NCBI GenBank assembly: GCA_001275005.1
Contig: JWZX01003083.1
Span: 1 to 33,977, forward strand
DNA from: Chrysochromulina tobinii
Lineage: Eukaryota
DNA: 33,977 nt
Direction of reading: 5' to 3'
The position numbers and the translations under genes are program-made. The notes beneath the pieces were generated by a model that was not told the origin of the DNA, searched no databases, and was given only the letters and a program-made list of their open reading frames with translations. Within the stretch, counting starts at the first letter, position 1, and each line of letters starts with the position of its first letter. Positions 1,308-33,977 of this stretch are shown piece by piece.

Positions 1308-2435
1308 ATGACGGTTGGCGAGTCCTTCCTTGAGTCCCCCGCTCGCCCGACGTCCGTCCTTTCTTCTCCCGCCCCGCTGGGCATAGAGCTGTTCGACCCG
1401 TCTTCACCGTCGTCGCCTTCGCGCTCGCCACGCACGCCTTCTATTGAGTCTGCCCACCATCACCACGACGAGGTGAACTTCGGGAATTACCGGCATGCCT
1501 TGAAGATCAGCGAAGATGCAAGGACCGCAGACAGGCGCGCCTGGCTCAAGGGCGCGCGCACATTTCGCGAGGAGCTCATCACGCGAGAGACGATGAAGCA
1601 GGCGGACATCGACAAGAAGATAGCGATCATCATCAAGAACCGGCCTGAGCCACCGGGCACGCCAAGTTCGCCGCGCGCGCGCCATGGGCCGCGCGACGCC
1701 AAGGCTGTACGCACGCCCGATATCGATTTCTCGTCCGATGTCATGAAGAACTTGACCATCCAGCGCGCGGAGCAGGCGCGGCAGGGCGCCGAGATACTCG
1801 GAGGATGGACGGCCACGGTTGGCAAACTCAAAGCGACGGAGGTGTTCGCGTCCGAGGAGCGCACGGCCAAGGTGCAGGACGCGCTTGCACAGGCGCACAA
1901 CCTCACCTCGCGCCACCACAAGTTTCAGACGCGCAAGGCGCAGTTGCAAGAGCTCGAGCGGTCAGCGAATCTCGTGCAGATGAGAAGGCACGCGAGCGAG
2001 ACGCGGCAGCGGTCTGAGCTCATGGCGCGCATGAAGGCGAATCGCGAGCGCGCGGCCGACCTGCGCGTACACGCGTGGCGCGTGACGATTGCGAGTGGCA
2101 CGGATCGCACGATCCATAATCAGGTGCTCCTGATTGCCTCTGATGACCTCCGATGGGATCCCTCATCAGGTGCTCCATCCATATGAAGCTGATTGCCTCT
2201 GATGACGATCCATAATCAAGTGCCTCTGATGACGATCCATAATCAATTGCCTCTGATGACGATCCAATTGCCCCTGATGACGATCCATAATCAGGTGCTC
2301 CATTCGCCGCGCAAGGGCGTCGGCTTGCCAGAAAGCCCCTGGCCCGTGTACAACCATGTGCCCTCGCCTCGGAGACCCGCCAGCGCGCTGCCCATTCCTT
2401 TGTCGCCTCGGACGCCCGTCACTGAGAGGCATTGA
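1308..2435 (+). CDS. Hypothetical helical/coiled-coil protein, join(1308..2123,2295..2435)
   Basis: ATG at 1308 within ORF 1164..2186. Removing GT..AG intron 2124-2294 joins RTIHNQ to VLHSPRKG...TERH* of ORF 2193..2435. Confidence 0.65.
2124..2294 (+). mobile_element. Introner-like repeat intron (171 bp), CTGAT..ATCAG family
   Basis: CAG|GTGCTCC ... CAG|GTGCTCC. 22-bp direct repeat ACGATCCATAATCAGGTGCTCC at 2109-2130 and 2280-2301. Contains CTGATTGCCT units and CCCTCATCAG at 2160-2169. Confidence 0.75.
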
Positions 2436-2649
2436 AACACCTGAGAACGATGTACGGTGTTTGGTGGCGCTGTGGCGCTCTCTGAGAGCGCGGGCGCGCT
2501 GGTGGGCCGATGCCAATGACGCGAAAATGTTGCACTTACGGCCTCACAATAAGGTTCTCAGCAGTTGTTCACACTCACCTCGGCCATTTAATGGGTTTTT
2601 GGAAAGCTTAGCTGCGAAAGCCTTCTGTCCACGCCGCCACGGAGCAGCG

Positions 2650-3610
2650 ATGGTGAGGACCTCGCCTGGCCTGTTGCCGCTTGCTGCTGCTAGCCGACCC
2701 CCGGCGCCTGTTCATTTGCGGCCTGAGCGCGCAAGAGCGTCTGCACGCGCTGCTACCCGCCGTGACTATAGTCTGCAAGCTGCTGTTGATGGCGCACGTC
2801 TCGCTGACTTGTCGCTGTTCTTTGCTCTCGCAGGGTCGTGTCATCCGTGGTCAGCGTAAGGGTCGCGGCTCCGTCTTCGTGTCGCACACCAAGCACCGTA
2901 AGGGTGCGTGCGGCCTCAAGGCGATTGACTTCGCTGAGCGCCATGGCTACATCCGTGGTGTGGTCAAGGATATCATTCATGATCCGGGTCGTGGCGCGCC
3001 GATCGCAAAGATCCAGTTCAACGACCGCTATCGCTTCAAGAAGGTGAATGTGCAGTGGACCGCGACTGAGGGCATGTACACCGGCCAGTTTATCTACATG
3101 GGCAAGCGTGCGCAGCTGGTTCCGGGCAACGTGATGCCTCTGGCCTCGATGCCGCCAGGAACGGTGATCAACAACGTGGAGAAGCACGCCGGCGACAAGG
3201 GCAAGTATGCCAAGACTTCGGGTGGCTTCGCGCAGATCATCGGCCATATTGATGGCGCCGGCATGACGCGCCTGCGCTTGCCGTCGGGTCAGAAGAAGAC
3301 CGTTACCTCGATGGCGCGTGCGACTGTCGGCATTGTTGCCGGAGGCGGCCGTATCGACAAGCCTCTCTTGAAGGCCGGCCGCGCCTTCCACAAGTTCCGG
3401 GTCAAGCGCAACTCGTGGCCCCGCACCCGTGGTGTTGCCATGAACCCCTGCGAGCACCCGCACGGTGGTGGTAACCACCAGCACATCGGCCACCCCTCTA
3501 CCGTACGCCGCGACAGCGTGCCCGGCCAGAAGGTCGGTCTCATTGCGGCGCGTCGCACTGGCATTCTGCGTGGCAGCAAGGATGTCGTCGAGGAGAAGGG
3601 TGGAAAGTGA
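2650..3610 (+). CDS. RPL8: 60S ribosomal protein L8 (uL2), join(2650..2652,2834..3610)
   Basis: ATG|GTGAGG donor at 2653, GCTGAC branch-like site, polypyrimidine tract and CAG at 2831-2833 give [11 protein letters not shown]. Hallmarks [35 protein letters not shown]. Confidence 0.97.
2653..2833 (+). other. Conventional GT-AG intron directly after the RPL8 start codon
   Basis: GTGAGG donor, GCTGAC, TTCTTTGCTCTCGCAG acceptor; restores the conserved N-terminus. Confidence 0.93.
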
Positions 3611-4458
3611 TAAGACGGCGTGATAAGGCAACGAGGCGTGTGAATATCTGATGTCGCGAGCCGTGCCGTGCCAGAGGGCCGGGCGGGCCGATGCGTGGGT
3701 GCCGGGGTGTCTCGCGGAGCGAAATCGCACACGGCGCAGATCGACAAGCATCAGAGTGATGTCTGCACGCTTCTGCACGCGTCCCTGTCCCTTTCGTACG
3801 TGAGTATCTCAACTCCATGTGATTTTCTCTATTACTTGCAATTTAGAACGTACTTTTCAGAGGCGCTGCTCCCTGCGCGCGACTCCTGCGCGACTCTCGA
3901 CTCGGCCGGCCGCCGCGGGGCGGCGGGGCGGCCGAGGCGCCGAGCCCCGGCGGGCGTGGCGTTGGGAGTCGAGACGACGAACGCCGTTGGAACTAAATTG
4001 GACGAACGCGTACGTTGCCAACAGTGACCGTCGCGGGACCGCGGGGGCGAGCACACACCACAGGGCGGCACGGCGCGCCAGACGGTGAGCCAGACGGTAG
4101 CGGGGGCGCGCGAACGCGCGGCGAGCGCCGAGGACGGGCCGCGCGGCGATTGCGACCACGTACAAACGAGCAGGCAGGACGCAGGAGCGAGGACCAGTGA
4201 AGGACCAGTGAACCGAACGCGTAAACCCAACCGCAAACAAACACCCAAAGCGGGGACAGAGCGACTCGGTCCGCGCCCTCCCGCGCTCCGACTGCCTGGT
4301 CTGCCGTGCAGGTATGCCACTGACAAACTGAGGATCGAGGACCGTGGTGGGTGACAGGTGTGCGTCAGTGCGACGCCCGCGGAGTCGTACCTCGTTGGCC
4401 ACGTGGTCGTGCGGCCCAACAGGGGCCATGGTGCGGGCGCGAGAAATCCATGGCCCCT

Positions 4459-4524
4459 GCCGAGGCCCATGGCCTTGGGGCCCCGCCGAGGAGCCCTGGG
4501 CGCCGAGGCCCATGGCCTTGGGGC
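4459..4524. repeat. 23-bp direct repeat in a CCATGG-rich, GC-rich intergenic tract
   Basis: GCCGAGGCCCATGGCCTTGGGGC at 4459-4481 and 4502-4524. Confidence 0.85.
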
Positions 4525-4667
4525 TACGTCGTAAGTCGAGGGCACCCGGGATCACCCGAGCCCCGGGGCGCACCTGGGCACGGCACGCACGGCGCACCCC
4601 ACACAATCGGCATGCTCGCGCGGCCGCCGCCCCTCCCCCCGGGCAATGGGACGAAACTGCCACATGA

Positions 4668-7101
4668 CTACAACCCGTCCTCCAGCAGCGCGGCTGCAAG
4701 CCGTAAGCGTCTATCCTGGACCAATGCGCTGGGCTCCTCAGTTCCTCGGGGGCGTTTGCCATACTTGGGGGCGTTGGCCATCTTCGGTCCAAGCTTCACA
4801 TCATCAGCACGCGCGGTGACCGGCTCTGTCGTCGTCCTCGAACTGAATGCTTCCATATTTGGGAGCTGCTGCTGCTGCCCCTCCGACGCGCCGTCCCAAG
4901 CGCCTTCCTGCCCGCGAGTCTGCCTGTGGGCAAAGTAGGCATCCTCCACTTCCTCCATCGGTGCGCTCAACGGCAGCCGACCCTCGCGTTCCTCACTGAG
5001 CGCCCATCGCACTCCGACGAGCGCGCGCTCGTACCTGATGAGGGAGGCAATCAGCATGCACTCAGCATGCACTCGGCATGCACTCGGCATACACTCGGCA
5101 TGCACTCGGCATGCACTCGGCATGCAATCACCTGATCCGAGCGAGCGTGGGCCGTTGGGCAGGCAATCAGGCAAACGGGCAGGCGACTAGAATGCAATCA
5201 GCGTACTCGGCAGAGAGACGAGCGAGCGCGGGCCGTTGGGCAGGCAACTCAAGTGGACGATACGCCTTTGCCGCCTTGGCCATCGACGCCTTAAAGTGGT
5301 GCACCTCAGAGTCCTTTAGGAGGGTGTAGCTCGTGCCCGCCTTGCCCGCGCGCGCGGTGCGACCGACACGGTGGACGTACCCCTTGATGTTGGCGGGCGG
5401 GTCGTAGTTGATCACGACACTCACACCCTCGACATCCATACCGCGCGCCATCGCATCCGATGCAATGAGCACGCGCGTCTGCCCTGACTTGAGCCGCTCG
5501 AGCGCGAGGGTGCGCTGCTTCGGAGGCACCGACGAGGAGAATTCGGTCGCGGCGATCCCGAGCATATGAAGCAGTCGTGTGAGACGATGCGTACTCTCCA
5601 AGGAGGAGCAAAAGACGATCACGCGGCCAGACTTGAGGGAGCGGCGTCGAAGACCGCCTCCTCCTTTTCCCACTGCCGCGAGGGCGGCGTCTGCCTCGGC
5701 GTCCTCGGCTTCGTCGTTCAAGCGTACATCTTCGGTCACCTCCGCGGCGCTGTCGTCGTCGTCGTCCTTGTCGTCGTCGTCTCCATCCTCGCCGCCTTCC
5801 ATCACCTCACCCTCTGCTCGTCCGCCCTCCGCCACGTCCTCGGCTTCAGCCTCTTGCGCCTCCGCCTCCAGCAGCCCACGCAGCAGCAGCAACAGCAGCC
5901 TGGGCTTCTCTTGGGCACCGCACGTCAGCATCCACTCCTTGAGCGTGGCGGGCGTCGCGTACCGTGCGCCCGCGACACAAAAGTAGCGTGGATTCACGAG
6001 CTGCAGCGGCGCGAGCTTGGCGGGAGAGCGCGTGAGGGTCGCGGAGAAGAGCAGCTTGAGTAACGGCGCATCCGCCCCCGTGAGCGCCAGCGGCGCGCCG
6101 CGGCTGCGTGCGGCGGCCGAGCCAAGGCGCGCACGCACGGTCTCCGCGGCGAGTGCGGCTGGGGCAGCGAGTGCCGACCGTCCTAATATGGGTGCGGCAT
6201 GGGATGGCCTAATATGGGCGGCGTCGAGGACGCTCCGCAACCAGCCTTGGTAGCCTTGCGACAGCAGCCTATCAGCCTCGTCGACGACTAAGAAGCGCAG
6301 GTGCTGCAGCGTGAAGGGAGCGCCGCTCTGCAGGTGCTCGACCAGTCGGCCGGGCGTCGCTATCACGATGTCCACCGCTGATGTGCCCTCGCCCGCCACC
6401 AAGTCGGCTTCATGGTAGCTACCGGTACTGCTTCCTCCGCTGACTCGCACGAGGCTGGCACGCTCGCGCTCCCACGAGACGCCCTCCTGACCGGCGGCGA
6501 GGCCACAGCGCAGAGGCGTGCCTTCGCAAAGCGTGCAGAACACTCCGTGCACCTGTGCCGCCAGGCCGCGCGTAGGCAGGAGCACGAGCGCGCGCAGCCG
6601 TGTCACGACCCGTGGCAGCAGCGCCTGCACAATTGGCAGCGCGTAGGCGAGAGTCTTACCCGAGCCCGTGGGCGCGCACACGCACACGTCGGCGGCCCGG
6701 CGCGCCGCATGCGCCGCGAGCACGACCGGCACGACCGCCGCCTGCACCGGGAAGCATTGATGCACGCCAAGCCGACCGAGCGCGGCGACAAGCCGCTCGT
6801 CCAGGCCGAGCATAGCCGTACTCGGCGTGCGCGCCTCGATGATACTTGCATGCGCGCGGTGCATCCAAGGCGGCAGCGAGGTTTCGTCCTCCACGCCAGC
6901 CTCCGGCTCGCCCTCTGGCATCAAAGGGTCTGCCGCCTCTTGGCCCTCGTCGTGCTCGGCATCTCCGGGCCCGCTCGCCTCCTCCTCCTCCTCCTTCTCG
7001 TCGTCGGGCAAAAGCCGGGAGTCGGCGCCCTCATCAAAGCCCATGAGCGAATCGCCGACGGTAGGCAAGCCTGCGAAGGCGTCATCCAGGTCGACTTCCA
7101 T
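4668..7101 (-). CDS. DDX51: DEAD-box RNA helicase, DDX51/DBP6-like, complement(join(4668..5034,5207..7101))
   Basis: Q motif FPVQ, APTGSGKT, LPTRGLA, TPGRL, DEAD, SAT, ARGMD, HRVGRTARAG. ATG at 7101. Splicing 5035-5206 gives SAEYERALVGV in frame with ORF 4668..5174. Confidence 0.88.
5035..5206 (-). mobile_element. Introner-like repeat intron (172 bp) in DDX51
   Basis: Minus strand GA|GTACG CTGATTGC ... CTGATTGCCTCCCTCATCAG|GTACG, a 5-bp duplication GTACG. Seven 11-bp units at 5054-5130. 29-bp exon copy at 5138-5166. Confidence 0.85.
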
Positions 7102-7264
7102 TTTCGCACGTTTCCTATGCCGGTCGCGTCGCCTTCGTAGTTCCGCGTTGTGAACAGTTTCTTTAGCCGGGAAAGTGGGGGATGGCGAGCCCGCACTCAA
7201 GAATTGCATCTGTCGACTCCCACATTCCTAACATCAGAGTTCCGGCACACCCGTCAGCGGGTTT

Positions 7265-7284
7265 CGTGATTCGCACGAATCACG
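7265..7284. promoter_or_regulatory. Palindrome in the DDX51/ATG8 divergent intergenic region
   Basis: CGTGATTCG-CA-CGAATCACG with perfect 9-bp arms; regulatory role is inferred from position only. Confidence 0.35.
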
Positions 7285-7394
7285 CACGAAGCAATAGCGG
7301 GACGACTGCCGTGGACGGATCGCTTTCTTGCTTTCGTGGCGTCTAGGCGTCCCACTCGGTTTCGGCACCACAGGTCCCGGTAGCCGTCGTACCG

Positions 7395-7895
7395 ATGCGA
7401 AAGACCGAGTTCGCCTACAAGCAGGACCATCCCTTCGAGAAGCGCGTAGCAGAGGCCGCACGCATCCGAGAGAAGTACCCCGACCGTATTCCCGTCATCT
7501 GCGAAAAGGACGTGGGCTCCGACATTCCTGCGGTCGACAAGCGCAAGTACCTGATCCCGATGGACCTGACAGTCGGCCAGTTTGTGTACGTGATCCGCAA
7601 GCGCATCTCGATTCCGTCCGACAAGGCCATCTTCATCTTTGTCAACAACTCGCTTCCGCCAACTGCCGCACTCATGAGCACGGTCTACGAGCAGCACAAG
7701 GATCAGGACGGCTTCATGTGCGCCTCCAGCGATCGAATGCACGCGCTTGCGAGCCCCTACGCGCTTACGCACACCCGCTTCCCATCGCTTCCCAACTCAC
7801 GAGCACACGCCACCCACACGCGCAGGTACATGATGTACTCTGGGGAGAACACGTTTGGGTCGGCAACCGAGTTGCTGGAAGAGGGCTCACCGTGA
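7395..7895 (+). CDS. ATG8: Autophagy-related protein 8 (GABARAP/LC3 family), join(7395..7717,7826..7895)
   Basis: [36 protein letters not shown]. Removing intron 7718-7825 gives [15 protein letters not shown] plus the short tail [11 protein letters not shown] after the conserved Gly. Confidence 0.96.
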
Positions 7896-8722
7896 AAGCG
7901 CGGCTGTGCCACGTGGGACGATCTCCTCATGACGACGTGGCGCCCCTTCTACGTTCACGCGAGCATGTTTCTCTCGTCGCGAGTCTCATGGCGGTTTGGG
8001 CGCAAATGGCTGGCCAACCGCCCCCCGCGGCGACGGGTCGTAACTGATTAACGAGTATGAAGCTGTCCCTCATGTGATGAGCGCGTTCCTTCTCACTGTT
8101 GTCCCCCCCAAACGCGGGGTAGGGCAGGCCACGTTCCGAGCACACCCGCCGGCCCCCGTGGCCCGTGGCGGGGCGCGCGCTTCGTCGTGAGCGGGCCTCG
8201 TGGACCCGTTGGAGCGGGTGCGTTGCGGTCGAAGGCGATCCACCCTGTTCATCGAGCCACGAGCGGCGATTAGAAATCGTGTAGTGGTTAGTGGAAGTGG
8301 TTAATCGCCATCGCGCCGGAGCCGTTGTCTCGTCTGTATGAATAACGATGCGCGATCGTGTAGACCGTACCGCGCGAGAGGCGTGTTCGGTGCTGGACGA
8401 TTTCAGTTACCGCGCCGGAGCTTCGCTTGAAGGCGGTGGTCTATCCGATTTAATCGGTCCGATATCGATCGCCCCCGCCCCCCCCCCTCCACCCCGCACA
8501 TCTCTGACGCCCGCGTCCGTACACACTTCGGGACACATCTTCATCTAGGATTGTGCGTGTATACTGTCTGACATACGATTATCTAACCCGTTTCCGTCAA
8601 TCACAGCGCCGAGAGTGCTGCGGGCGGGTGTCACCGCCCCGACGCGCGGCCCAAGGCCGGCGGGTAATGTAATGCCGAACCGGATACGTGTGGGCACAAG
8701 CATCAAACCATCAATCAGAGTC

Positions 8723-11272
8723 TCAGAACTGCAGAGCATGGCCAATCTCCACAGTGAAAAAGTCAGTGATCCACGTCCGGACGTTATCGGAGATGACGCT
8801 CCAACTCCATCCTTGATTGGCGCGGTCGGCCACACTCATCGCTATCGTCGCCCGTTCGCCATCCTTTTGGCGCTCTGGGTCGTACGAGCCCGGTCCAACG
8901 CCGGGACCCGTCTCGCGGCCGGACCCGCCCAGCGAGTCGCTAGGGAAGCGGGCCTCATGCCCTGTACCCATAAGGATGCCCCCGCTCTGGATATGCGGCT
9001 CAACAGAGGTCATGTTGGGATCGTAGGCACCCACGCCGGGAGAGGCGCTCGGGAGCAACATAGGTCGCTGTTCCGAAGTAGCACGCAAGGCGCTGCTGGC
9101 TCGGCAGCGGTTTGCCTCGTGGCCCATGGGCCGCTGGCGGCCGAATTGATCGACAGTCGGGTTATATTCTGACGGGCCGGGATTACCAGCCCCCATGATG
9201 TCTTGCCGCATCACACGCGCCGTCTGCGCGCCGAAGCCTGCAAATCCTGCGCGGCTCGCGAGGTGGAACGAGGCTGCTGCTTGCTGAATGACTTCGTGGC
9301 CGTCACCACTTTTCATCACGCGGGGGTCGTAGGCCCCAGGGTCGCCCGCGTCCGTCGCGAGCATGTTTCGTCCGTCACTGCGGCACTCACGAGCTGTCAT
9401 GGAGCCAAAGGCACCCATCCCTGCTCGGGCGCTAGCGTTGAAGGTCGAGAAAGCAGCTGCGGCCCTGACGGCAAGATCCGTGGGCAAGCGATGGCCAAAG
9501 TAGGCGCCTGGCCCAGGTGCCTCCTTCTTCTCCCGAACGAAGGACAGATCGAGTGGACGAGCCGAGGCTCCGACACCGAACCCGGCTTCTTTGCTCGCAA
9601 TCGCGCGGCTCATGCTATCCACGACCTTGTTGACGGCCTGAGCGATCGAACCGTTCACCTCAGCGTCGTACGAGCCCGGTCCAATGCCAGGACCCGTCTC
9701 GCGGCCGGACCCGCCCAGCGAGTCGCTAGGGAAGCGGGCCTCATGCCCTGTGCCCATGAGGATGCCCCCGCTCTGGATATGCGGCTCGACGGAGGTCATG
9801 TTGGGATCGTAGGCACCCACGCCGGGAGAAGCGCTCGGGAGCAGCATGGGGCGTTGCAGCGACTCCGAACGGAAGCTCCTGCTGGGCATGGCAAGACGAC
9901 TGCCCATAGCGCCATCGAGAAAGTCGGTGGTCCAAAACCGATTGTATGTCCCTGGAGCGGGCACGTCCAGCCCCATAATCTGTCGTGGCATCTCGCGTGC
10001 TGTGGCGGGTCCGAACGCATACAGCCCAAACTGCGAGCGAGTGTTGAACGATCGGCCCATGTCCGAGGAGATCGTCTTCACCCTGCTCAGGTCATACGCG
10101 CCCGGATCGCCGTTTGGAGCCTCGCAGCGCAGGCGAATGGTCGTGGTCTTGAAGGACGAGCGATGTCCATCGCCACCATTGCTGAGCTGAGATGGACTCC
10201 TTGCCTCATATGCCCCAGGACCGGGCGTGCTCATGTAGTCCATCATGCCGACGCGCTCAAAGGGCAGCTCACGGGCCTTCCATTTTCCGCCAAATGCAGG
10301 GCGGCACAAGCTCATGCGCGCATGGATCTGGGCGGCGGTCTGGGCTATCGTGCCGCTCTTGTCGTCGTACGAGCCCGGTCCAACGCCGGGACCCGTCTCG
10401 CGGCCGGACCCGCCCAGCGAGTCGCTAGGGAAGCGGGCCTCATGCCCTGTACCCATGAGGATGCCCCCACTCTGGATATGCGGCTCGACGGAGGTCATGT
10501 TGGGATCGTAGGCACCGACGCCGGGAGAGGCGCTCGGGAGCAGCTTTCTCGGGCGTTGCGGCGACTCAGAACGGAAGGCGCCACCAGCAGCATCATAATC
10601 AGCTGCAGTACTTGCCATCGGTCGAGGCACGAGTGGGCTGTAATCTGCGGCTCCGGGAGTGTTGTCGCGGACGTCCAGCTTCAAAGTGCGCTCTGTGGAA
10701 CTTCCGAACGCGCCGTGACCAATAGCATTCAAACGGTTGAATGATGATGATGCTTGGGAGCCGACATCCGTGAGATTGTACGAACCTGGGTCCTGACTTT
10801 CTTGCAGGAAAGGGTCGACCTTGGGACGCTGTGACTTTGATCGAAAGGCCGACGAGCCAGCGAGCTGTAATATGCCCGACCCCAGCTTTTGAGGATTGTA
10901 CTGGCCTGGGCCTGGACTGCCCCAACGCTTGGCTACGCGCGCCTTTATGCGCATCTCGTCCTTCTCGGCACGCTTGCTTGGGCTCAAGGTGGGTGACGTA
11001 TTGCGTGCCAAACTCGACGGTGCAGAGCCCTGGGCGATGGGCTTGCGTCGTGCAAACGGCGGTGATTTGGGCGGTGGTGCCAGCCAGACGGGCACCTTCT
11101 CTTTGAGCGGCTGTGTTGCTCCAGTGGGGCTTGCCTCGACGATTGAGGTAGGATCGCCGCTAATCAGTTCGAGGCGCGCCTCCTCCTGCTGCCGCACCTC
11201 TAGCTCCATGATCTCCTTCTCGGCGATGAATTTGGCTTCCAAATCGGCCAATGCGGCCGGAGACATCGGCAT
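8723..11272 (-). CDS. Sperm-tail PG-rich (STPG/SHIPPO-ODF3-like) repeat protein, probably axonemal
   Basis: 849-aa ORF with many PGPGxY / DPGAYD / GPGSYD motifs, each followed by F-x-S/T...R. Confidence 0.8.
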   Translation of the reverse strand: MPMSPAALADLEAKFIAEKEIMELEVRQQEEARLELISGDPTSIVEASPTGATQPLKEKVPVWLAPPPKSPPFARRKPIAQGSAPSSLARNTSPTLSPSKRAEKDEMRIKARVAKRWGSPGPGQYNPQKLGSGILQLAGSSAFRSKSQRPKVDPFLQESQDPGSYNLTDVGSQASSSFNRLNAIGHGAFGSSTERTLKLDVRDNTPGAADYSPLVPRPMASTAADYDAAGGAFRSESPQRPRKLLPSASPGVGAYDPNMTSVEPHIQSGGILMGTGHEARFPSDSLGGSGRETGPGVGPGSYDDKSGTIAQTAAQIHARMSLCRPAFGGKWKARELPFERVGMMDYMSTPGPGAYEARSPSQLSNGGDGHRSSFKTTTIRLRCEAPNGDPGAYDLSRVKTISSDMGRSFNTRSQFGLYAFGPATAREMPRQIMGLDVPAPGTYNRFWTTDFLDGAMGSRLAMPSRSFRSESLQRPMLLPSASPGVGAYDPNMTSVEPHIQSGGILMGTGHEARFPSDSLGGSGRETGPGIGPGSYDAEVNGSIAQAVNKVVDSMSRAIASKEAGFGVGASARPLDLSFVREKKEAPGPGAYFGHRLPTDLAVRAAAAFSTFNASARAGMGAFGSMTARECRSDGRNMLATDAGDPGAYDPRVMKSGDGHEVIQQAAASFHLASRAGFAGFGAQTARVMRQDIMGAGNPGPSEYNPTVDQFGRQRPMGHEANRCRASSALRATSEQRPMLLPSASPGVGAYDPNMTSVEPHIQSGGILMGTGHEARFPSDSLGGSGRETGPGVGPGSYDPERQKDGERATIAMSVADRANQGWSWSVISDNVRTWITDFFTVEIGHALQF
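8879..10544 (-). repeat. Three dispersed ~180-bp near-identical coding repeats
   Basis: Copies at about 8879-9058, 9665-9844 and 10364-10543 encode LLPSASPGVGAYDPNMTSVEPHIQSGGILMGTGHEARFPSDSLGGSGRETGPG(V/I)GPGSYD. Confidence 0.95.
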
Positions 11273-11359
11273 GGCACCAACGTTTTTCGCGGTCGGGGAG
11301 ACGGACTATACAAAATGGGTGGTTTCATCTTTCGACGGCACCCCAGGAGGGGAAAGGCG

Positions 11360-11654
11360 TACCGGGTACAGAACTTTCGCCTCCCCGGTAAAAAGTCTGG
11401 CACCGCGGGGAGCCGGGACACACACAATTCACACACAATGACAGTCCCCAAAATTCCCAAACTGTGAGCTGGGCCCCTGGGCATGAGAAACCACACAGTG
11501 TGGAGTCACCATAATTTGGGATTCGAGTTACTAGAGCACTGTACGGTAGTAGAGTCGGTGGGGTTGGTTTTGAGCGCGTTGAGGGGGTTCGTGACATCGT
11601 GAGGTTCGTGTATCTGCCTCGTCCCTCGTGCGTGTCTCCGGTGTTTTTTAACCG
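11360..11654. repeat. Degenerate second copy of the 28597-28837 inverted-repeat element
   Basis: CCGGTAAAAAG..CACCGCGGGGAGCCGGGACACACAC (11385-11425) matches the arm at 28599-28633. A weaker opposite arm CGTGCGTGTCTCCGGTGTTTTTTAACCG lies at 11627-11654. Confidence 0.6.
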
Positions 11655-11830
11655 CCGATAGTACAGTACAGTACGTTTCGGCGCGCGCGCGCGCGCCTCG
11701 TTTCAGATCTTTTCAGACGCACATTCACATTCACGCACACCTTCCAGTTATGTCTCCGAAAAGTAATGCCCGACAGGGGGCCCGACTGACTGACAGCAGG
11801 ACAAGGCATCGTCGGGCATAACTAGTGGCC

Positions 11831-12733
11831 ATGAATCACCTCTGCGGCTTGCCCAATACTGTTGGCAACCCAATCGACACGCTCCTCGAACTCGGCGAGC
11901 GTGAAGCGCTCGCAACATTCAAAGCAAGCTACATGGAGCATGCTGACGCGAACGATTCTGTGCCTATCTGGACCTTGACAAAAGAAGCAGTTGATGCCCT
12001 TCCGGCAAGTGGCTGGCGTGCCTTGGACGATGTCACACTGCTGCGTTTCTTGCGCGCCGACAAGCGCAGGGATGGCTTTGACCACGCTAAATCGATGGGC
12101 CGATTACTTGCAGCGCTCGCGTGGCGAAAGAAAACGAACTCTGATTTGCTTCTTGCTTTGCCTGCGGATGACGACTACGAGCACCTGCGCATTCGCCGCT
12201 GGGTCGGCACGGACAAACATGGGCGACCGGTGCAGTTTGAGCGCCTGGGAGAGTTCCTCTGCAGCGGCAATGCCAAGGCCTTCACCGCCGACGAGTGGTT
12301 GCGCCACTACGCGCGCGATCTAGAGACCACTTTCGCAGAGATGCGCCAGGCCAGCCTCGCAAGTGGCAGGCCAGTGACCAAGTACGTATTTGTTGGCGAC
12401 TTCCAGGGCGGCTCCGGCGTCGTCTTCCACATGAGCACGGTCGTCCCGCTGCTCAAGATGCTCACGAAGTCGGTGGAGGCGCACTTTCCAGAAATCGTCG
12501 ACAAAATCCTCATCTTCAACGCGCCCCGTATCTTCGCAACCATGTTCCAGATCGTCAAGGCATTCATGGACCCGATCACCGCCGCCAAGGTGGAGGTGTA
12601 TGCTGGCGTGCCCACGGGGCGCTTGCTCGCGCTCATGGATTCGAGTACCTTGCCAGTGGAATACGGTGGCACAAATGCGATACCCTACCCCCTCGCGCGC
12701 GTGTTTACCCCGCGCTCCCAAGATGCCAAATGA
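11831..12733 (+). CDS. CRAL-TRIO / Sec14-like lipid-binding protein
   Basis: ATG at 11831; DDVTLLRFLRA, GTDKHGRPV, HFPEIVDKILIFNAPRIF, FMDPITAAKV, LPVEYGG. Confidence 0.9.
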   Translation: MNHLCGLPNTVGNPIDTLLELGEREALATFKASYMEHADANDSVPIWTLTKEAVDALPASGWRALDDVTLLRFLRADKRRDGFDHAKSMGRLLAALAWRKKTNSDLLLALPADDDYEHLRIRRWVGTDKHGRPVQFERLGEFLCSGNAKAFTADEWLRHYARDLETTFAEMRQASLASGRPVTKYVFVGDFQGGSGVVFHMSTVVPLLKMLTKSVEAHFPEIVDKILIFNAPRIFATMFQIVKAFMDPITAAKVEVYAGVPTGRLLALMDSSTLPVEYGGTNAIPYPLARVFTPRSQDAK

Positions 12734-16850: not shown

Positions 16851-17015
16851 AAGAACTCGAGCCACTTCCGGCGAAGTTCAACTGGTCTCGGTGCTGAGTG
16901 TGTGATGTGTGGAGGTACGGAGCGGCTCGCAGACGGGAACAAGGCGTCGCTCTAAGACCCTCTAACATGGAGCGGCCAGCGCCCAGCGACGGCGGCGGAG
17001 CGTGTTCTCCCGGCG

Positions 17016-17042
17016 TTAGGGATTAGGGTTAGCGCATTAGGC
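17016..17042 (+). repeat. Short degenerate telomere-like TTAGGG tract
   Basis: TTAGGG-A-TTAGGG-TTAGCG-CA-TTAGGC. Confidence 0.5.
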
Positions 17043-22363: not shown

Positions 22364-23994
<1,631 letters not shown>

Positions 23995-24134: not shown

Positions 24135-24152
24135 GGGGGGGGGGGGGGGGGG
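24135..24152 (+). repeat. G18 homopolymer downstream of SRP54
   Basis: 18 consecutive G. Confidence 0.9.
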
Positions 24153-26245: not shown

Positions 26246-26448
26246 CGATGCGCTAGCGAGCCTCGTCCACCAAGAGAGTGGAGAGAGGCGTTGTGTGTTC
26301 AAAAATTCAGGCTCCCAAAAAAGGATCGTGATTTCGCGAGGGAGACGTTGCGACAGTCAAGTCCAGTCAAGCCAAGTCAGCTTCGGTTCCTGAAGCAAAT
26401 CAGTTACGTACAGTTGTACTCAGACCTGGTCTGACCTCCGCGCGGCGA

Positions 26449-28454
26449 CTATTTCCAGGCGTTGTGAGCCCAGATGGGGGTTGTAAAGCCCGCAATGCCG
26501 CCTCGTGGGAACGGCAGGCGGGCGTGAGGATTCAGAATGAGGGGATGGTCAGGAGGGGGATCAAGTGGCCCTGAGCCCGTCCTCCATTTTGGCACATTAG
26601 TGGCGGAGCTGCTGTTGCTGCTGTTGCTGCTACTTTCCTCTGGCGGCGGCAAACTACCGTCGGCGCAGAGAGCGCGCCTATCAAAGGTGCACATGGTATC
26701 AGAGCCATTTACCCGATACACGGCGCTTGCCGACGCGCGGTATTGGTGATGCTGAAGGATTCGGTGTGCATACGGCCGGTAGGCATCGATCTTGCACCAC
26801 ACGTCTTCGGGAGGTTGAGGCATCACACGCCCCTCGGGGTAGTCGAGGCCGGCTCTACTCCGTTTGAGCGAGAGCATAAATGTGCCCATCGTTTTCTCCA
26901 TGTGTACCGCAGTTCGAGCTAGCCTCAAGTCATCAGCGCCCCACAAGTCATAGCGCTCCTCTGGATCCGCTGAGAGGTTGAAGAGCGCCACCGTGTGGTT
27001 AGAATAGCCGGCTGACAAACGCGTCCACGCCTGGGAGCACTCGGACGGGGGAGGTATGGGAGCTGACGCAGTGGAACACCGCGTCCTGTTTGGGTAGAAG
27101 CGGCGGCTGTGGACACCAGATGCCCATCGATCCTGAATCGCCCACCTAACCAGCTTGAGATCGCTGTGAACCGACACATCAACGCCCCTAAAGCTCATGA
27201 GGATGTCCTTGTGGCGCCCGCTGGGGATCTCCCCAAGAAAGAGCTTGTAAATGCTCAAGCCATCCTGTGGTTCCAGCATGCTCGATGCCGGCAGGCCCAC
27301 GATCTCGGCAATGGTAGGGAAGAAATCATATGCAGATACTGGGTAGTGAGTGATTCGTGGTGAGATGACTCCGGGCCACTCGACGATTGCAGGCACGCGT
27401 ATGCCGCCCTCAAGCATTTGCTTCTTGAAGCCGTGGAGGCCACCATTAGGGTCGTCTGGAACCTCGTGAAAAGGCTGGGCACCTGCAGCATGGAAGAACG
27501 AAAAGTGAACAAATGTGCAGTACGCAATCAGAGCACGTCGGCACTCGGTTTCGGCCCACCGTTATCACTCGAGAACCATAGTAGCGTCCGGTTTTCGATT
27601 CCCAACTCACGCAGACCCTTTCGCATGGTGCCAACGCTGCGGTCGAGTGAGTGCAACTCGGCGTAGTACCGCACCACGTGGTGTTCGAGAAAGCAGTCGC
27701 AATCGCGGGGCCACACTGGCGCGGCAAAACGCCCTTTGACTCTCGTTGGTACGCACGCCTTTGGAGTCTTATACCTCTCGCAGCGGATGAGGTCTCTGAA
27801 CAGGGCCTGGTCCGCTGTGTGTGCATACCAAGGATCGTGCGGGGAAGCGTAATGCACTGCAACAAAGAGAGGCTTTGGGTAAGGCGCTTTCGCTTCGCGT
27901 CGGATAAAATTGAGGGCCTCGCGAACGATCACTTCTGAGCCTTCTCCGCGAAAGGCCTCGATCTCGCCTTCGCGACTGAGCAGAGGGTCCAAGTCGAAGA
28001 CTCCATAGTTGGAGATCCACGTCTCGAAACCAAACGCCGAAGGGCGGTGGCTGTAGTTTCCAAGTGTGGGCCCGCCGCCGATCCCAAGCGAGTGGATGCC
28101 TTCGAGGTGCATTTTGCCGAAGTGGGCGCAGTGCCAGCCTGCGCGTTGAAGGGCATGGGCAACGGTTTTCTCTTGCAAACGCAGTGGCATCCCCTGGTTG
28201 TCTACACCTGTGCGGTGCGGAGCTCGGCCGGTAAGGAGCGCGGCTCGTGCAGGCGAGCACACAGGCGAACCGGAGTAGTAGCGCTCGAGCCGCAGCCCAT
28301 TCGCTGCCATCGCTGCCAGGTTGGGCGTCCTGAGGCGTTTCTCGGGATCGCGCCATTCAACTTCGCCCCATCCCTGATCGTCCGAGAGGAGCTGAACGAT
28401 GTGCGTGACTGGCGGAGCGTGCCTCACTGCTTCCACACTTTGCGTCGACGCCAT
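26449..28454 (-). CDS. Formylglycine-dependent (S1) sulfatase, complement(join(26449..27482,27545..28454)); alternative donor at 27559
   Basis: SDDQGWG, TPNL..MA..G, CSPARAALLTGR (CxPxR), GKMHL, PHDP, SDNG, EGGIRVP, LFNL..DP.E..DL. A phase-1 intron ending TGCAG at 27483 joins the two ORFs. Confidence 0.88.
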
Positions 28455-28596
28455 AACGGCGTCGGTGAGGAAGCGCGAGCCGCCCAATGCTGTGAGTGAG
28501 CGTGGGGGAGAGAGCAGTCCGCAACACTGTTCCGCGCAACAAACGTGTGTGAATGTGTGTCTGAGTGACTTCTAAGAAACGCTCGCACCTCACCGC

Positions 28597-28824
28597 TACC
28601 GGTAAAAGACACCGGGGGAGCCGGGACACACACGGGTAAGCGTTGTAATATTAGAGGATTTGCGGAATAATGATTGTTTCGACCGGTGCTCGTCGTGCGT
28701 CTTGCCCTCATGGCAAATAAACTAAGGCAAATAAACGTGAATGTGAACGTGAACGTGTTGCGGTCGAAACAGCAATACCGGTCCCGTGTGTGTCCCGGCT
28801 CCCCCCGGTGTCTTTTTACCGGTA
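28597..28824. mobile_element. MITE-like element with ~40-bp terminal inverted repeats and TA ends (or paired promoter motifs)
   Basis: TACCGGTAAAAGACACCGGGGGAGCCGGGACACACACGGG (28597-28636) is the reverse complement of 28783-28824 apart from two homopolymer indels. The interior is relatively AT-rich and has no credible gene. Confidence 0.6.
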
Positions 28825-28895
28825 CCCGTACCCGGTAAGTCGGCGAAGCGTCGACCGAAACGACCAAAGACGCGAAAAAGCAGGCTTCAGTCCAG

Positions 28896-30179
28896 ATGGC
28901 CACGGCCGCCGGAGCTGCAGCTGCCCAGTCGCGTGGCGGCATCCGCCGGTCTCAAGGGAGTGCACTTGCGGGTGAGGGAGGTTTGGTCGGAACAGATGTG
29001 CTGCCAGGAATGATGCCGGAGGATGACTTTGGGCTGTCGCTCGAGGCGCAGGAGCTTGCTGAGCTGCAAGGCATGATTGGATCGTCAACAGTGGGCTCAC
29101 GCCGGACGCCTCCCATGTCCGTCGGCAAGTATCGCCAGTGGAAGCTCGTCGAGGCGAATATTGGGCTCGCTCAGCAAATACGGGCGGAGGAGCAGGCTCT
29201 CAAGCAAAAGCTGCTCGAGTCAACCCACGCCTACCATGAAGCGCGAAAGGCCAAAACCTCAGTTGGCCACATGCAACTGAGGCTCTCCGCAGATGCGGTA
29301 CAAAAATACCACGCTCAACTCGCCATTCAAGGTGCGGAGGGCAAAAGGCAGCTGGAGGAGATCCGCGACAAGGCCATCAAGCAGAAGGCGGAATGGGCAG
29401 CGCATGGCGCACGCAACGCGAACCTGCACGGTCTCGAGCAGAAAAAGCGCGTGCTCGAGAGTCGAGCCGAGCGCTTTCAGTCGCGACGGAATGCTGCGTT
29501 GGCGACGAAGCAGGAATCAGAGGCGAAGAAGGCTGAGGCGCGTGAGCGGATGAACAAGGTCCTCGAGGAGAAGCGCCTTCGACTCGAGAAGACTCGCGAG
29601 GGCTTGCCGACGGCTGAGAGCCTCGCGGCGGCACGTGACTTCTTCCTCGAGCAGAAACGAGAGGCTGCGCGCGATGTGCGCAAGTCTTCGGAGAGGCTGG
29701 AGTCTGCTCGCAAGAAAGATTCGGAGAGATCGCTTGCGCGCGCGGCGGCGAATCGTACGGTCGCGTTCGAGGGGCGCAAGGCTGCAACGCAGCACCGCAC
29801 CGAGATCCTGGAGATGCGAAAGACTCAAGCCAAAGAGATCAAAGAGAGACTGAAGACACTGGAGGCAGCGCGACAACAGACTGTAATTGCAGCGACTCAG
29901 AGTGGCAAGGCGGCCCACCAAGAAGTGTACGAGAAGAGGTTTGTCAGCCAGGAGGAGGCGGAGGAAGTGCACAGCAGCGAATACGGCACCTTGCTACAGC
30001 GAGTGCGGACGCCAGGCGTGATGGGGAAGTCGGGAACAAGCCCTGGCCGTGATCGATCGAGTCGAATATCTCAAGAAGAGATACGCCTCGATTCGAACTC
30101 ACCAGTGTCGCCCAGCAGCGATTCGCTTGGCGGCTCGCCGAAGCAAGCGTGGACGGAGCCAGCACTGGAACTCTCGTGA
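28896..30179 (+). CDS. Hypothetical coiled-coil protein (E/K/R/A-rich)
   Basis: 427-aa ATG-initiated ORF with a long charged helical region; no recognised domain. Confidence 0.7.
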   Translation: MATAAGAAAAQSRGGIRRSQGSALAGEGGLVGTDVLPGMMPEDDFGLSLEAQELAELQGMIGSSTVGSRRTPPMSVGKYRQWKLVEANIGLAQQIRAEEQALKQKLLESTHAYHEARKAKTSVGHMQLRLSADAVQKYHAQLAIQGAEGKRQLEEIRDKAIKQKAEWAAHGARNANLHGLEQKKRVLESRAERFQSRRNAALATKQESEAKKAEARERMNKVLEEKRLRLEKTREGLPTAESLAAARDFFLEQKREAARDVRKSSERLESARKKDSERSLARAAANRTVAFEGRKAATQHRTEILEMRKTQAKEIKERLKTLEAARQQTVIAATQSGKAAHQEVYEKRFVSQEEAEEVHSSEYGTLLQRVRTPGVMGKSGTSPGRDRSSRISQEEIRLDSNSPVSPSSDSLGGSPKQAWTEPALELS

Positions 30180-30696
30180 CGCTGATGCACGATGGCGAGA
30201 TCTCGACGCATGTAAGGATTGGCACGGGCGCTCGACCCGGAGAGTCGTTACTGCATGGAGATGATCGAGCCATCATCTAAGTTCGAGACGCAACAGGGTA
30301 TAACCATGAACGCGGCATGCCGCATGAGAGTGTGACCCTCGCCATAGCCGTAAGCCGCGTGACTTGTGCAGCGTGAGAAGACAGAGATATGGTCGTCGGT
30401 GTGGTCACGCGTGGCTCGCACAGATCGCACGACCGACTATTCGCGCCACCCTGTAAAGGGATGCTTCTATTCGCAGTGACGGTTCGCGTGTCGTCGCGCT
30501 CGGCCGGTGTATAATACCAAAGGATAAATAATGACGCCGAACGGAACGCGGCGCAACGCCCGGGGGTGTCGCGGACTCGCGGTGACCGGTGTCGGTACCC
30601 CCTACACGCGTACAGTTCAGCGTGTAGCGCACACTAGAATCCTCCTATGTATTGTTTATCCCGAACCACGATGCTCGATGCTTCGATGCACGATGC

Positions 30697-32184
30697 TCAG
30701 AACGGGAACGCCACATAGTTTCGAACGTTGCACATCCTCAGAGTGCCATTGACAAGCACAATCCTCTCGAGCACGTTTTGCAGGGCAGGCCACGGCAGGA
30801 TAACATCCTGCGAGATGTAGCTGGATCGTTGACGGACGTTGGGGACGTGGCTCAGATTATTACTCTCCAGCTTGTAGTAGCAAAGCTCCCGTTCGCTCGA
30901 TAGGTAGAGATTGGTATACAAAGAGCACGGGCAATCTCCCCTCGTCACGGGCATCACCTCCACGACCGAGCCTCCCGAAGGAAGCGCAAATCCATTGGGG
31001 AGGTCGCTTCCATGCATCGAAATGAAGACGTCCGCTTGGGTGAGCACCTCCGCGTTCTCCAAGGTGCCGTTCCACAGACTGTGGGCGATGCAGTAGGCAC
31101 GAATGCCGTTCGGCGCCACCCATTGATTGCAACGAGAGACGAGCTCCTCTAAGTTGAGGATCTGCCGGCGATTCGTTCGATTCGTGAAGAGGACTCTCAT
31201 TCGGGGCCCAGCCTCTGACGTGGTACGATCGGCGGGCCACAGGGGCGAGACAAGATCCTCGGAGCCCTCCGAGTGCCGGAGCCGAGCGACGCGTGACTGC
31301 GAGCGCAATTTGCCGGCTCGAGACAATAGGAAATGCATCGTGCTCCACGGGCGGCTCTGTCCGGTCGCTGGGTCTCTGAACTTGCAAACCGTCGCCGTCT
31401 GAAAGCAGCGCGGCGCTGGAGCGTCAAACATCCGATACACGCTGCTGTTGAACTCGGTTTCCCCTGAGTACCTCGCCGCCTCATAGTACTCTTGCAGGAT
31501 CCCCGAGAAGTTGCGTGAGCGTAACGCCTCGTGAACTCGGTTTGCCTGGCTCCACGACTGGATGGGATGAGAGAGTGGCTGGATGGCATGCCGACTCATC
31601 GGCTGAAGAAGCGTACTCAACATCTCGGGCGAGCCTAGCGCGGGAATGACGTGTACGCTGGCGTTCTGGGCGTCTACGATCAGCTCGAAGAGTCGAACTG
31701 CGACACGAGCAAAGACCTCGCCGAAGGTGTATGGCATCGTGCCGTAGTAGATCACCGCTGGCTCGTCGGAGAAGCTCGACTGTTCGGGTTTCGCGAGGAG
31801 CGTCGCATTACGACGGAGAAACCTTTGGACTGAAGGTTTCGAAAGTTCGTAATCTTGCGCAGCGAGAATCAACGGTACGAAGTGGTATGGCTGCGTGGCG
31901 TTGGCCATCACCATTGCGACTGGGCGTACATGTGGTCGGAGCTTGCGAAACGGACTCATGGGATCGTCCGCATAAAACACCAACTTCTTCAGCTCGTCCG
32001 CTTCATCCTGGGTCTGAACGGCGAGCTGTTCACCTTGTACGCAAATGTTCGAGACGACGACACAGGTCTGCAGCACAGCATTGAGCGACTTGTTGGATCT
32101 ACTGAAAAGAAAAGAACCCTCCATCGACTGAGAAGGGGCGTTGATCGGCCCAAGGAAGATGGCGCGCGGGATCCACGTGAGCAC
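30697..32184 (-). CDS. Glycosyltransferase family 61-like (DUF563) protein; 5' end uncertain (first ATG 32124)
   Basis: R...RQILNLEEL and ADVFISMHGSDLPNGFALPSGGSVVEVMP match the GT61 C-terminal pattern. Confidence 0.75.
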   Translation of the reverse strand: MLTWIPRAIFLGPINAPSQSMEGSFLFSRSNKSLNAVLQTCVVVSNICVQGEQLAVQTQDEADELKKLVFYADDPMSPFRKLRPHVRPVAMVMANATQPYHFVPLILAAQDYELSKPSVQRFLRRNATLLAKPEQSSFSDEPAVIYYGTMPYTFGEVFARVAVRLFELIVDAQNASVHVIPALGSPEMLSTLLQPMSRHAIQPLSHPIQSWSQANRVHEALRSRNFSGILQEYYEAARYSGETEFNSSVYRMFDAPAPRCFQTATVCKFRDPATGQSRPWSTMHFLLSRAGKLRSQSRVARLRHSEGSEDLVSPLWPADRTTSEAGPRMRVLFTNRTNRRQILNLEELVSRCNQWVAPNGIRAYCIAHSLWNGTLENAEVLTQADVFISMHGSDLPNGFALPSGGSVVEVMPVTRGDCPCSLYTNLYLSSERELCYYKLESNNLSHVPNVRQRSSYISQDVILPWPALQNVLERIVLVNGTLRMCNVRNYVAFPF

Positions 32185-32488
32185 ACCAATTGCTGTACTA
32201 TTGTTTTCGTCCGACTGTCGGCCTGAGCGGGCGTTCGCGGCCGATTGGGTTCGCCGGTCCCAGCTCTCCGCTTGGTCGTTCGGTGTGTTTCGGTTTCGAA
32301 CTAAACCTGGCTGTGAACGTCAAGTCGAACGTCAAGTTATGAACGCGATGCCCGTGACGAAGAAACCATGTCATGCCACATGCACACCAGGGAAAGCAAA
32401 AAGTACCCATCATGGAACATGGTCAGGAACATGGCCCCTCATGTAACCTAAGAGTACGGTGTATCGGTGTTATTGGAGTTCTCAGCTC

Positions 32489-33977
32489 TCACTTGCGATC
32501 GATGCCGCTGAGTACCGCATCAAGCACGAGCTCCTTGGCCCGGGCGGCCTTCCGCTCGGCCCTGCTGGTGCTTCCTCGTAATGAGCGGAGGACCTCCCAT
32601 TCTCGTCCCTCCTGGGGGATGAGCAGCTGCCCGGCGCGCTCGCGGAGCGTACCTGATGAGGGAGGCAATCAGACGTCTTCAGAGGCACTCAGAGGCACTC
32701 AGACGTCACCAGAGATCATCAGACGTCATCAGAGGTCGGGTACCGAGCATGGCCTCGGCGGACAGGAAGAAGGCGTCGACGAAGACAGCCTGGCGCTTCC
32801 GGCTGACCTCCTCTGCGTCGGGAGCGCTCTCGATCACACTCACGTCCACATCGAAGGCCACGCCGCGGTCGGCCGCCGCCGCAGCGTCCGACGTGAGCGC
32901 GCTGCTCTCGCGCCAAAAGGAAGGTGGGTCTGCGGCGGGGCCGTTGAGTGGCCGCGTGCGTGGCTCCGCTTGGCGGGAGGCGCGTGCCGCGTTGCCGTCG
33001 GAGTTTTGTGCAGATCGCAGCACGGTCTCGTCAAGTGCGGCCACACCGGTTAGAGTTTCGTCAAAGTAGGGTACGGCGTCCGCCTCCACCACGCCATCTG
33101 CTGCGTCGAAGTCCGCATCGACGCTCAAGTCATCGAGCGGCAGGAAGTCTGCCGTCACGGACTGCGCATTCGTCCGCGAGTTCGACCTCCCCTCCACGCG
33201 GAGCTCGAGCGTCGCGAACACTTTCGCCGCCGCCTCGACCGCCGCCTCCGCCTCCGCCACAGCTGCCTCGGCCGCCACATCGGCCCCCGATCGAGGTGCC
33301 CAAGTTTCGTCCCAAGTTTCGTCCCGTTTCGTCAGCTTGCGGAGCTCGGCGACCCTCCGCCGCTTTGCCTCCACCTCGGCTCCGACTCCGGATGTGACGG
33401 ACGACGGTGACGGTGGCGGCGGCGGCGGCGGTCGCGCCGTCCGGACCGCCGACACAGGCGTGGCCGCCTGTGCGGCTGACGGAGGCGCGGACGAGAGCTG
33501 ACTAGAGGCCAGGGCCCTTTCCGCAGCGCCGCCGACCGCCTCGCCCAGGCTGCGCATGTCCGCAGCGAGTTTTGAAGTTGGTCCCTTGACGGCCTCGACC
33601 AAGTCGGCCAACGGCCCAAGCTGCGCCCCGCGCTGCAGGTCCGTCGCGTACTCCTGCGCAATCTCGCGCGCGAGCTCGCCCACCAGCCCCACGTCCACCC
33701 CGCCGCCGCCTCCAGTGCCCTTGGCGCCGGAGCCCGATAGGCTGTTACCCAGCGCCTCCGCAACGCGGCGAGCTACCATGCGACCCACAGCCTTGGCAGG
33801 CGGCAACACCCCGTAGACGAAAGCGTCGGCTGAGTCCTTTGTAGCACGCTGACCGAGCGCCGCCGCCACTCTCAGCTGCTTCGTCTCCGTCTCCAGCTGC
33901 CGGCGCCGCTGGCGCTCTAGGCGCTGCGCAACGGGTGAGCTCTGCCGTTGGAAAGCGCCGAGCGCCTGGGCGCCACC
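32489..33977 (-). CDS. Hypothetical Ala-rich protein, 5'-partial, complement(join(32489..32652,32744..>33977))
   Basis: Frame is open to the window edge. Splicing 32653-32743 gives AMLGTLRERAGQLLIPQEGREWEVLRSL...GIDRK* with TGA at 32491-32489. Confidence 0.65.
32653..32743 (-). mobile_element. Introner-like repeat intron (91 bp)
   Basis: G|GTACCCGACCT, seven 10-bp CTG-initiated units, then CCCTCATCAG|GTAC. The 25 bp at 32648-32672 are identical to 5030-5054 in DDX51. Confidence 0.85.

Follow-up and report, generated by a model that had tools for sequence, protein, structure and literature searches.

Repeat-built introns of Chrysochromulina tobinii carry pieces of one another and may multiply without a master element

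How new spliceosomal introns arise is a long-standing question, to which transposons are the current answer. A 33,977-nt stretch of contig JWZX01003083.1 from the freshwater alga Chrysochromulina tobinii (the window) raises it again, with four introns of related, repeat-built layout in unrelated genes. We found all four at the coordinates and with the ends given by the initial annotation (Table 1), and its 25-bp identity between 5030-5054 and 32648-32672 holds. Excision of each leaves an open frame, as had been claimed, and in SRP54 restores the conserved sequence: the spliced product is identical to P0233 at 490/490 residues. Spliced gene B is matched by C. parva model P0125 and spliced gene A by P0241, P0255 and P0256; these intron-free proteins, whose source molecule type is unstated, agree with spliced A, B and C. 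The four introns are confirmed as real, and for intron D it is the restored frame that argues for splicing. Allowing up to four mismatches to the 20-nt core and an AG end, the core occurs three times in the window and in none of 20 Markov simulations; the core of intron C, one base shorter, is missed by this count. Rfam gave no match in the window. The proposed duplication of the downstream exon is present at all four sites at unequal lengths, from 4-5 nt (D, B) through 7-9 nt (A) to 20 nt (C), and A and B additionally hold exact copies of upstream exon.

Table 1. Coordinates of the four window introns and their parts.
Feature	Position	Strand	Description
Intron A (GT-AG, phase 0)	2124..2294	+	Gene 1308-2435, 318 aa, no assigned function; two stacked modules; read-through proteins P0241/P0255/P0256
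Module 1 of intron A	2124..2169	+	7-nt duplication, units, degenerate core with AG end
Module 2 of intron A	2170..2294	+	9-nt duplication; family units alternate with upstream-exon-end copies; an exon copy gives the acceptor
Upstream exon end copy in intron A	2280..2294	+	15 nt exact, of 2109-2123; provides the final AG
Intron B (GT-AG)	5035..5206	-	DDX51/DBP6 helicase gene 7101-4668; 5-nt duplication
Upstream exon copy in intron B	5149..5166	-	18 nt exact, of 5230-5247
11-nt tandem array of intron B	5054..5126	-	6.6 copies; hybrid of family unit and host splice-junction sequence
20-nt core of intron B	5035..5054	-	Branch-point motif, pyrimidine tract and AG
Intron C (GC-AG, phase 0)	23126..23217	+	SRP54, 22430-23994
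Downstream exon duplication of intron C	23126..23145	+	20 nt, 1 mismatch, of 23218-23237; provides the GC donor
Intron D (GT-AG, phase 1)	32653..32743	-	Close to the 3' end of a gene with no assigned function, stop 32489-32491; 4-nt duplication; 10-nt array
20-nt core of intron D	32653..32672	-	Same sequence as the core of intron B

One exact-motif scan revealed 257 family sites in 124 loci, and we estimate the family in the thousands of copies. Counts are based on 715,533 non-redundant bases, with 20 of the 124 loci dropped as redundant and the window added. In layout, a duplicated piece of downstream exon, variable in length, provides a GT or GC donor and is followed by branch-point units of 10-11 nt and a fixed 20-nt acceptor end. 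There is neither a fixed target-site duplication (TSD) nor a terminal inverted repeat. Tabulated duplication lengths vary, as had been expected: a significant duplication is found at only 75 of 201 sites, spanning 9-55 nt continuously, and is shorter or decayed in the others. The inverted repeat read into CTGAT...ATCAG did not survive, since the motif is not terminal, insertions start at scattered unit phases (27 scored sites), and the core shows no excess of folding over its shuffles (hairpin z -0.72). The view that only unit vocabulary and 3' end are conserved holds family-wide, the 20-nt core alone being common to all; copies are not near-identical over their full length, and there are more than 60 unit variants, which are intron-specific. 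The core is absent from the viral contigs and prokaryotic genomes searched, and drift of the duplicated donor toward consensus is weak.

There are three donor-recipient pairs. In each, sequence that derives from an exon at one site is found in the intron of another, and all three recipients hold bases whose exon derivation exists only at the donor. The donor intron in a C2-domain gene (L092) and its recipient in an unrelated gene (L043) agree at 71/73 positions, the donor in a gamma-tubulin complex gene (L060) and its recipient in an Argonaute gene (L113) at 53/54, and a third pair lies within one locus (donor L024:10613, recipient L024:7745, 97/101 identical, phases differing). An origin in one master locus or a small RNA, once envisaged, is not supported, since the recipients hold exon-derived sequence of other, ordinary family introns. 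Assembly chimerism was considered for the cross-gene pairs and rejected, as only 9-14 nt are common to the 5' joins and the copies differ at 1-4 positions. An automatic search for rare 16-mers returned just four pairs among the 257 sites, namely 3 of 518 same-locus and 1 of 32,378 cross-locus comparisons. Same-strand neighbours have rare sequence in common, a strand preference not significant by itself with only 10 opposite-strand pairs closer than 3 kb; the members of one similar pair (L017), separated by 12.8 kb, are on opposite strands. Junction-signature donor searches gave 25 matches against 0-5 in controls, mostly uninformative owing to shared vocabulary and excluded from the counts, and the first donor ranking was noisy apart from its three clear pairs. 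The downstream exon starts agree over 4, 3, 12, 6, 4, 4 and 5 nt within seven pairs, three of them chosen by eye or via a noisier search, against a null mean of 2.3 nt (P = 0.006 for the four automatic pairs), so the template appears to run beyond the AG and not to be an excised intron. What is new is that copying can be traced from donor to recipient among ordinary introns, with no element defined.

Family introns are likely chimeric: a stretch duplicated from the host gene is followed by the 3' portion of a different family intron, the two probably joined through an RNA step. The account we favour, and hold to be modestly probable, is reverse transcriptase (RT) switching template between transcripts, followed by gene conversion, with any family intron able to serve as template. 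Travelling 3' to 5' on the target RNA, RT would use a microhomology of a few bases to switch to a donor pre-mRNA at the donor's acceptor junction, and would there copy AG and core plus branch-point units to a varying extent, sometimes continuing to the donor's exon-derived piece or the entire donor intron. It would return to the target 3-50 nt downstream and re-copy that stretch, whose first GT or GC would become the donor site; the cDNA would then convert the chromosome, only cleanly splicing products would persist, and later slippage would enlarge units and whole modules. No master element would be required, and the repeated branch-point units would keep truncated copies spliceable and give many landing sites. 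The candidate RT or transposase proposed as a check did not appear in the loci, about 1% of the genome: their six frames gave no credible match to RT motifs, and the 58 of 251 long ORFs covered held no RT, transposase or endonuclease family. In its broadest form the proposal is masterless intron multiplication, in which all family introns serve as templates, an RT that jumps between templates joins a target duplication to another intron's tail, and the process has produced about half of the genome's introns while selecting branch-point arrays; this we put forward tentatively, leaning slightly against it.

Templated synthesis with variable duplication had been preferred over cut-and-paste from the outset, and remains the better class. 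Of the routes then listed, slipping RT is now favoured, telomerase-like addition has fallen away, and polymerase-mediated end joining is still a rival, one that does not predict the sense-only pattern. In DNA-templated form, a polymerase repairing a break or replicating DNA would switch out to any family intron and back (polymerase-theta-type templated insertion or microhomology-mediated break-induced copying), with selection keeping spliceable products. We consider this unlikely, if a serious competitor. It expects the same chimeric anatomy, makes RT unnecessary, and accommodates the strong neighbour preference, the pervasive short direct duplications, the opposite-strand pair in L017 and the microhomology present at both junctions (1.44 against 0.55 nt at the 5' junction, P = 3e-5, n = 27, the scorable fraction of the 75 sites with significant duplication). 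However, orientation-blind capture predicts antisense intronic arrays, and 26,533 intronic bases hold 1271 sense units and 6 antisense ones, at chance level (8 expected). Many arrays would also be expected in non-coding DNA, where they cost little, yet they occur in 4 of 272 non-coding windows, against 39 of 933 sense-coding and 1 of 933 antisense windows (P = 0.04). Polymerase-theta-type templated insertion uses direct and inverted templates, with no strand lock; here junction microhomology and local templates are found (a local match in 55 of 96 stacks), but copies within 300 nt are all direct and none inverted. Such direct-only local copies fit plain DNA slippage equally well. Sites also favour the 3' half of genes (60 against 24; per gene 44 against 20, P = 0.004; P = 0.002-0.02 under three other settings; control mean 0.48), figures that depend on a coding model for which 13 ORFs of the window served as training set, and on a control without non-family introns. 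DNA-templated switching predicts this bias only via selection, and selection could indeed produce it, late insertions being less costly. RT template switching with gene conversion fits the sense-only arrays, the transcribed targets, the 3' bias and the template reaching beyond the acceptor. The donor-recipient identity, the microhomology excess and the copy-number polymorphism are likewise in keeping with it.

Markedly less probable is that the family represents the 3' tail of one SINE/LINE-like master, 5'-truncated and inserted by target-primed reverse transcription with variable target duplication. The usual footprint of that process, namely a fixed 3' end, a variable 5' end, variable duplication and 5' microhomology, is all present, with duplications of 9-55 nt; yet the copies do not form a nested set under one sequence, recipients contain exon fragments from ordinary host genes, sequence beyond the core is shared in just one donor-recipient pair, antisense copies are absent, and no RT was found near cores in the loci (about 1% of the genome).

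Variation between alleles bears on the next possibility. Site A appears to have empty, one-module and two-module alleles: P0245, P0247 and P0250-P0253 read as module 2 alone, so module 1 would be missing from some. Site B is read through in relatives of 51-70% identity, on contigs of 2.7-8 kb. Unit and module copy number vary among alleles of a single intron, and much array variety is therefore local slippage; the orthologous locus pairs L002/L004, L098/L124, L118/L122, L058/L070 and L008/L033 show copy-number differences or no difference, and no empty site. That the family is older, its look-alike pairs reflecting ectopic gene conversion between existing introns with no new insertion, has poor prospects: conversion would be helped by the resemblance of neighbours and by the homology of the 20-nt cores, and the module copied into L113 lies behind a pre-existing core, but the site-specific exon duplications would go unexplained, and the alleles inferred at site A and the read-through at site B speak against it. 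A degenerate introner of MITE type (moved by cut-and-paste, with fixed TSD and terminal inverted repeats), which the initial annotation had rightly set aside, or telomerase-like addition templated by a short RNA would share the polarity of the Symbiodinium/Polarella classes (duplication-derived donor, carried acceptor) and account for processive-looking tandem units and a CTGAT...ATCAG resembling an inverted repeat, but both are largely refuted and scarcely credible, as duplication length is continuous, the 5' end has no fixed start, units are intron-specific and none is TTAGGG (this alga's own telomere unit may differ), and donor exon pieces travel along.

Related introns sit at non-homologous sites in unrelated genes and, to judge by the apparent empty sites at A and B, are absent in relatives, so the family would count as introners in the broad sense. 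Read et al. are said to have described in 2013, in descriptive terms only, introns of Emiliania huxleyi rich in 10-11 bp tandem repeats; these haptophyte introns would be like ours in their wealth of 10-11 nt repeats, and may share the anatomy. Introners of Symbiodinium and Polarella glacialis (classes 4, 5, 6, 8 and 10) have TSD-derived donors with fixed TSDs of 3-8 nt (bioRxiv 10.1101/2020.10.14.339549); ours likewise hold the acceptor in the insert, draw the donor from duplicated target, occupy many genes and include GC donors, but those families have fixed ends and family-wide identity, whereas in our family neither the duplication nor the 5' end is constant and any intron could act as donor. 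Among haptophytes, compared by description and not by sequence, a Chrysochromulina sp. MAG has introners with a 4-bp TSD that carry the 5' site and co-opt the 3' site (PMC9860276), a polarity opposite to ours, with its carried 3' site and target-derived 5' site; small Emiliania and Pavlovales families are classed as 'co-opt 5' carry 3'' (PMC12130899 Dataset). Published introner screens list 0 families for C. tobinii, and the screening discards repeat-driven families and those with inconsistent boundaries (PMC9860276/PMC12130899). A review of intron gain counts 14 whole-intron transpositions, reports no in vivo demonstration, and names template switching as a possible route (PMC3443670). Our introns resemble its transposition models in that an existing intron would be copied to a new site through RNA, and differ in being mostly partial, chimeric, duplication-flanked copies, estimated in the thousands. 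They also recall its gains by tandem duplication or double-strand-break repair, where a direct repeat gives a splice site, as in intron A, where module 2 owes its AG to a copied piece of its gene's exon; unlike those, ours are filled with branch-point arrays that recur and are copied from other introns. By contrast with our family, sister stwintrons, for which end-joining models exist, have long inverted repeats and no flanking duplication (PMC8469720). A prior description of the C. tobinii family was not found in the open-access literature searched.

Ordinary introns thus appear to multiply without a dedicated mobile element, and donor-to-recipient copying is seen in an alga grown in culture for which two large screens recorded no introners. 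A masterless process, if real, would escape introner screens and might account for introns built from repeats elsewhere among the haptophytes. Since some sites are young and polymorphic and their donors can be identified, templating by RNA can be tested directly against templating by DNA. The family also bears on annotation: the public SRP54 model P0002 uses a wrong upstream GT and loses 13 conserved residues.

The four window introns are present as the initial annotation had described, and excising each of them leaves an open reading frame. The predicted return of conserved sequence on splicing SRP54 is borne out by database protein P0233, which equals the spliced product (490/490) and lies on 14 contigs of at most 1,873 bp. 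The spliced gene B product equals the C. parva model P0125, with the same helix kept in relatives; spliced gene A is matched by three proteins, 6-7 substitutions aside; and for intron D the evidence is that of the frame.

Family introns and other features of the window
Feature	Position	Strand	Host gene or description
Intron A	2124-2294	+	318-aa protein, function not assigned
Intron B	5035-5206	-	DDX51/DBP6
SHIPPO-repeat gene	8726-11305	-	Three near-identical internal nucleotide repeats, ~200 bp each
Telomere-like stretch	17013-17041		Short, degenerate, TTAGGG-type units, non-coding DNA
SRP54 segment	23087-23125		13 conserved residues, lost in public model P0002 through choice of an upstream GT donor; given back by the GC donor at 23126
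Intron C	23126-23217	+	SRP54
18-G run	24135-24152		Downstream of SRP54
Intron D	32653-32743	-	Protein of no assigned function

These introns belong to a real, genome-wide family, in which a module comprises a downstream-exon duplication with a GT/GC donor, branch-point units and a 20-nt core forming the acceptor end. Scanning metagenome contigs for an exact 21-base family motif gave at least 130 stretches in at least 124 loci (L numbers below); the motif had no match in viral and prokaryotic collections. With 20 redundant loci removed and the window included (715,533 bp), we counted 411 core-like ends in 257 sites among the matches listed, 80 of these 257 being stacks of 2-11 modules. GT/GC directly follows the core-like end in 225/257 sites, versus 16% after any AG, and in 106 of the 125 sites without the exact core. 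Non-seed sites number 108 per 523,837 bp (1 per 4.9 kb), and the window holds 4 in 34 kb. Given this density and, from the accessible part of PMC4580454, a 59-Mb genome with 16,777 genes and ~1 intron per gene, we estimate that there are roughly 7,000-12,000 sites, or about one intron in two; the loci behind this extrapolation had been selected for carrying the core.

A downstream-exon copy beginning at the donor is significant in 75 of 201 analysable sites (control 0.65%) and spans 9-55 nt without fixed length, matching the variable duplication size first noticed. Units likewise have the anticipated branch-point-like start, in many variants, and mostly measure 10 nt (925/1,300) or 11 nt (196/1,300). 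Emiliania introns reportedly contain 10-11 bp repeats. Insertions start at scattered unit phases, with 5' junction microhomology averaging 1.44 nt versus 0.55 in artificial junctions (27/75 scorable; P=3e-5). Unit or module number varies between alleles, which shows that slippage goes on after insertion. The first two modules are clearly unlike in 41/80 stacks. Internal stack junctions read AG then GT/GC in 81/154 cases (e.g. L010, L012, L033, L037, L038, L060, L113), an arrangement that would allow recursive splicing.

Copying between introns is visible in individual pairs. The L043 intron is the whole intron of L092, a C2-domain gene (71/73 identical), and takes with it 8 bases that derive from an exon at L092 alone; downstream of the two introns, the exons begin with the same 12 bases. 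The Argonaute gene L113 holds the tail of a module from L060 (gamma-tubulin complex; 53/54), bases derived from the L060 exon included, joined via ~9 nt of microhomology. Pfam profiles continue across the L092 and L060 introns. The 101-nt L024:10613 intron recurs in L024:7745 (97/101), where its position is not homologous and its phase differs, and further neighbour pairs have rare arrays in common (L078, L021, L017, L044). An automatic search recovered 3/518 same-locus and 1/32,378 cross-locus pairs and missed L092/L043. Since the sampling reached just a few percent of the potential distant donors and still gave two cross-gene pairs, we infer that distant copying is common. Downstream-exon starts agree in paired sites above chance (P=0.006 with the four pairs of the automatic search, P=0.0008 with a set of six that excludes L092/L043), so the template runs on past the AG.

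Random capture followed by selection would give the opposite of the pattern seen in introns and intergenic DNA. Within 26,533 intronic bases, 1271 units are sense and 6 antisense (8 expected by chance). Flanks of 131 arrays are sense-coding on both sides in 93, mixed in 32 and antisense in 6, all six with weak or negative coding scores, and arrays are rarer in non-coding than in sense-coding windows (4/272 vs 39/933; P=0.04). Of the forms of templated synthesis first proposed, a slipping RT is now favoured, and RT template switching is on balance the best reading. An RT would leave the target, jump onto a donor pre-mRNA and return, yielding the observed part order directly; such copying would be sense-locked and begin from 3' ends. 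In module 2 of intron A the RT would have jumped off the target 15 nt beyond the junction, with the AG then supplied by the copied exon sequence. Sites are concentrated towards 3' ends: 60 of 92 against 24, and 44 against 20 when counted per gene, with a control mean of 0.48. Selection could also cause this bias, and one similar pair on opposite strands counts against template switching. So does the suggested search for a candidate RT, which found none in the loci examined. Among 96 stacks with non-vocabulary segments, 55 have a local match and 41 none; copies within 300 nt are all direct. Unspliced RNA may be plentiful, by analogy with Emiliania, where the available part of PMC4028052 reports common intron retention.

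The family works like intron transposition with target duplication, any family intron serving as donor. It is not a MITE introner, in keeping with the early argument against cut-and-paste: in known introners both the TSDs and the ends are fixed, whereas here duplication length and insertion start vary. C. tobinii was among the inputs of a 2022 introner screen and had 0 families in a 2025 screen, whose curation drops repeat-driven, boundary-variable families. The accessible parts of PMC12480563, PMC4815162, PMC8469720, PMC13518057 and PMC8775090 do not describe the family; the RT template-switching idea itself is already named, as a hypothetical intron-gain route, in the part of PMC3443670 available.

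Read-through proteins indicate that site A exists in four states: without an intron, with module 2 alone, with modules 1 and 2 together, and as a third variant. Protein P0241 lies on an 11.6-kb contig, and other calls of its source read into the intron. We only infer the empty allele, since P0124, from the same source, stops exactly at the intron B donor, leaving room for splice-aware calling.

At L052:1178 (+) the duplication begins GA and a GT sits 9 nt upstream, which suggests an imprecise gain that removed three codons in frame. A different 10-nt vocabulary of GATCTC type, which may represent another lineage of repeats, is fused to the core in L093 (+) near 320, L024:8753 and L017:9677. 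A second intron type carries telomere-like C-strand repeats (L024, about 10720-10900; L053, near 9900-10020, minus strand), and in L053 family modules are piled on its acceptor.
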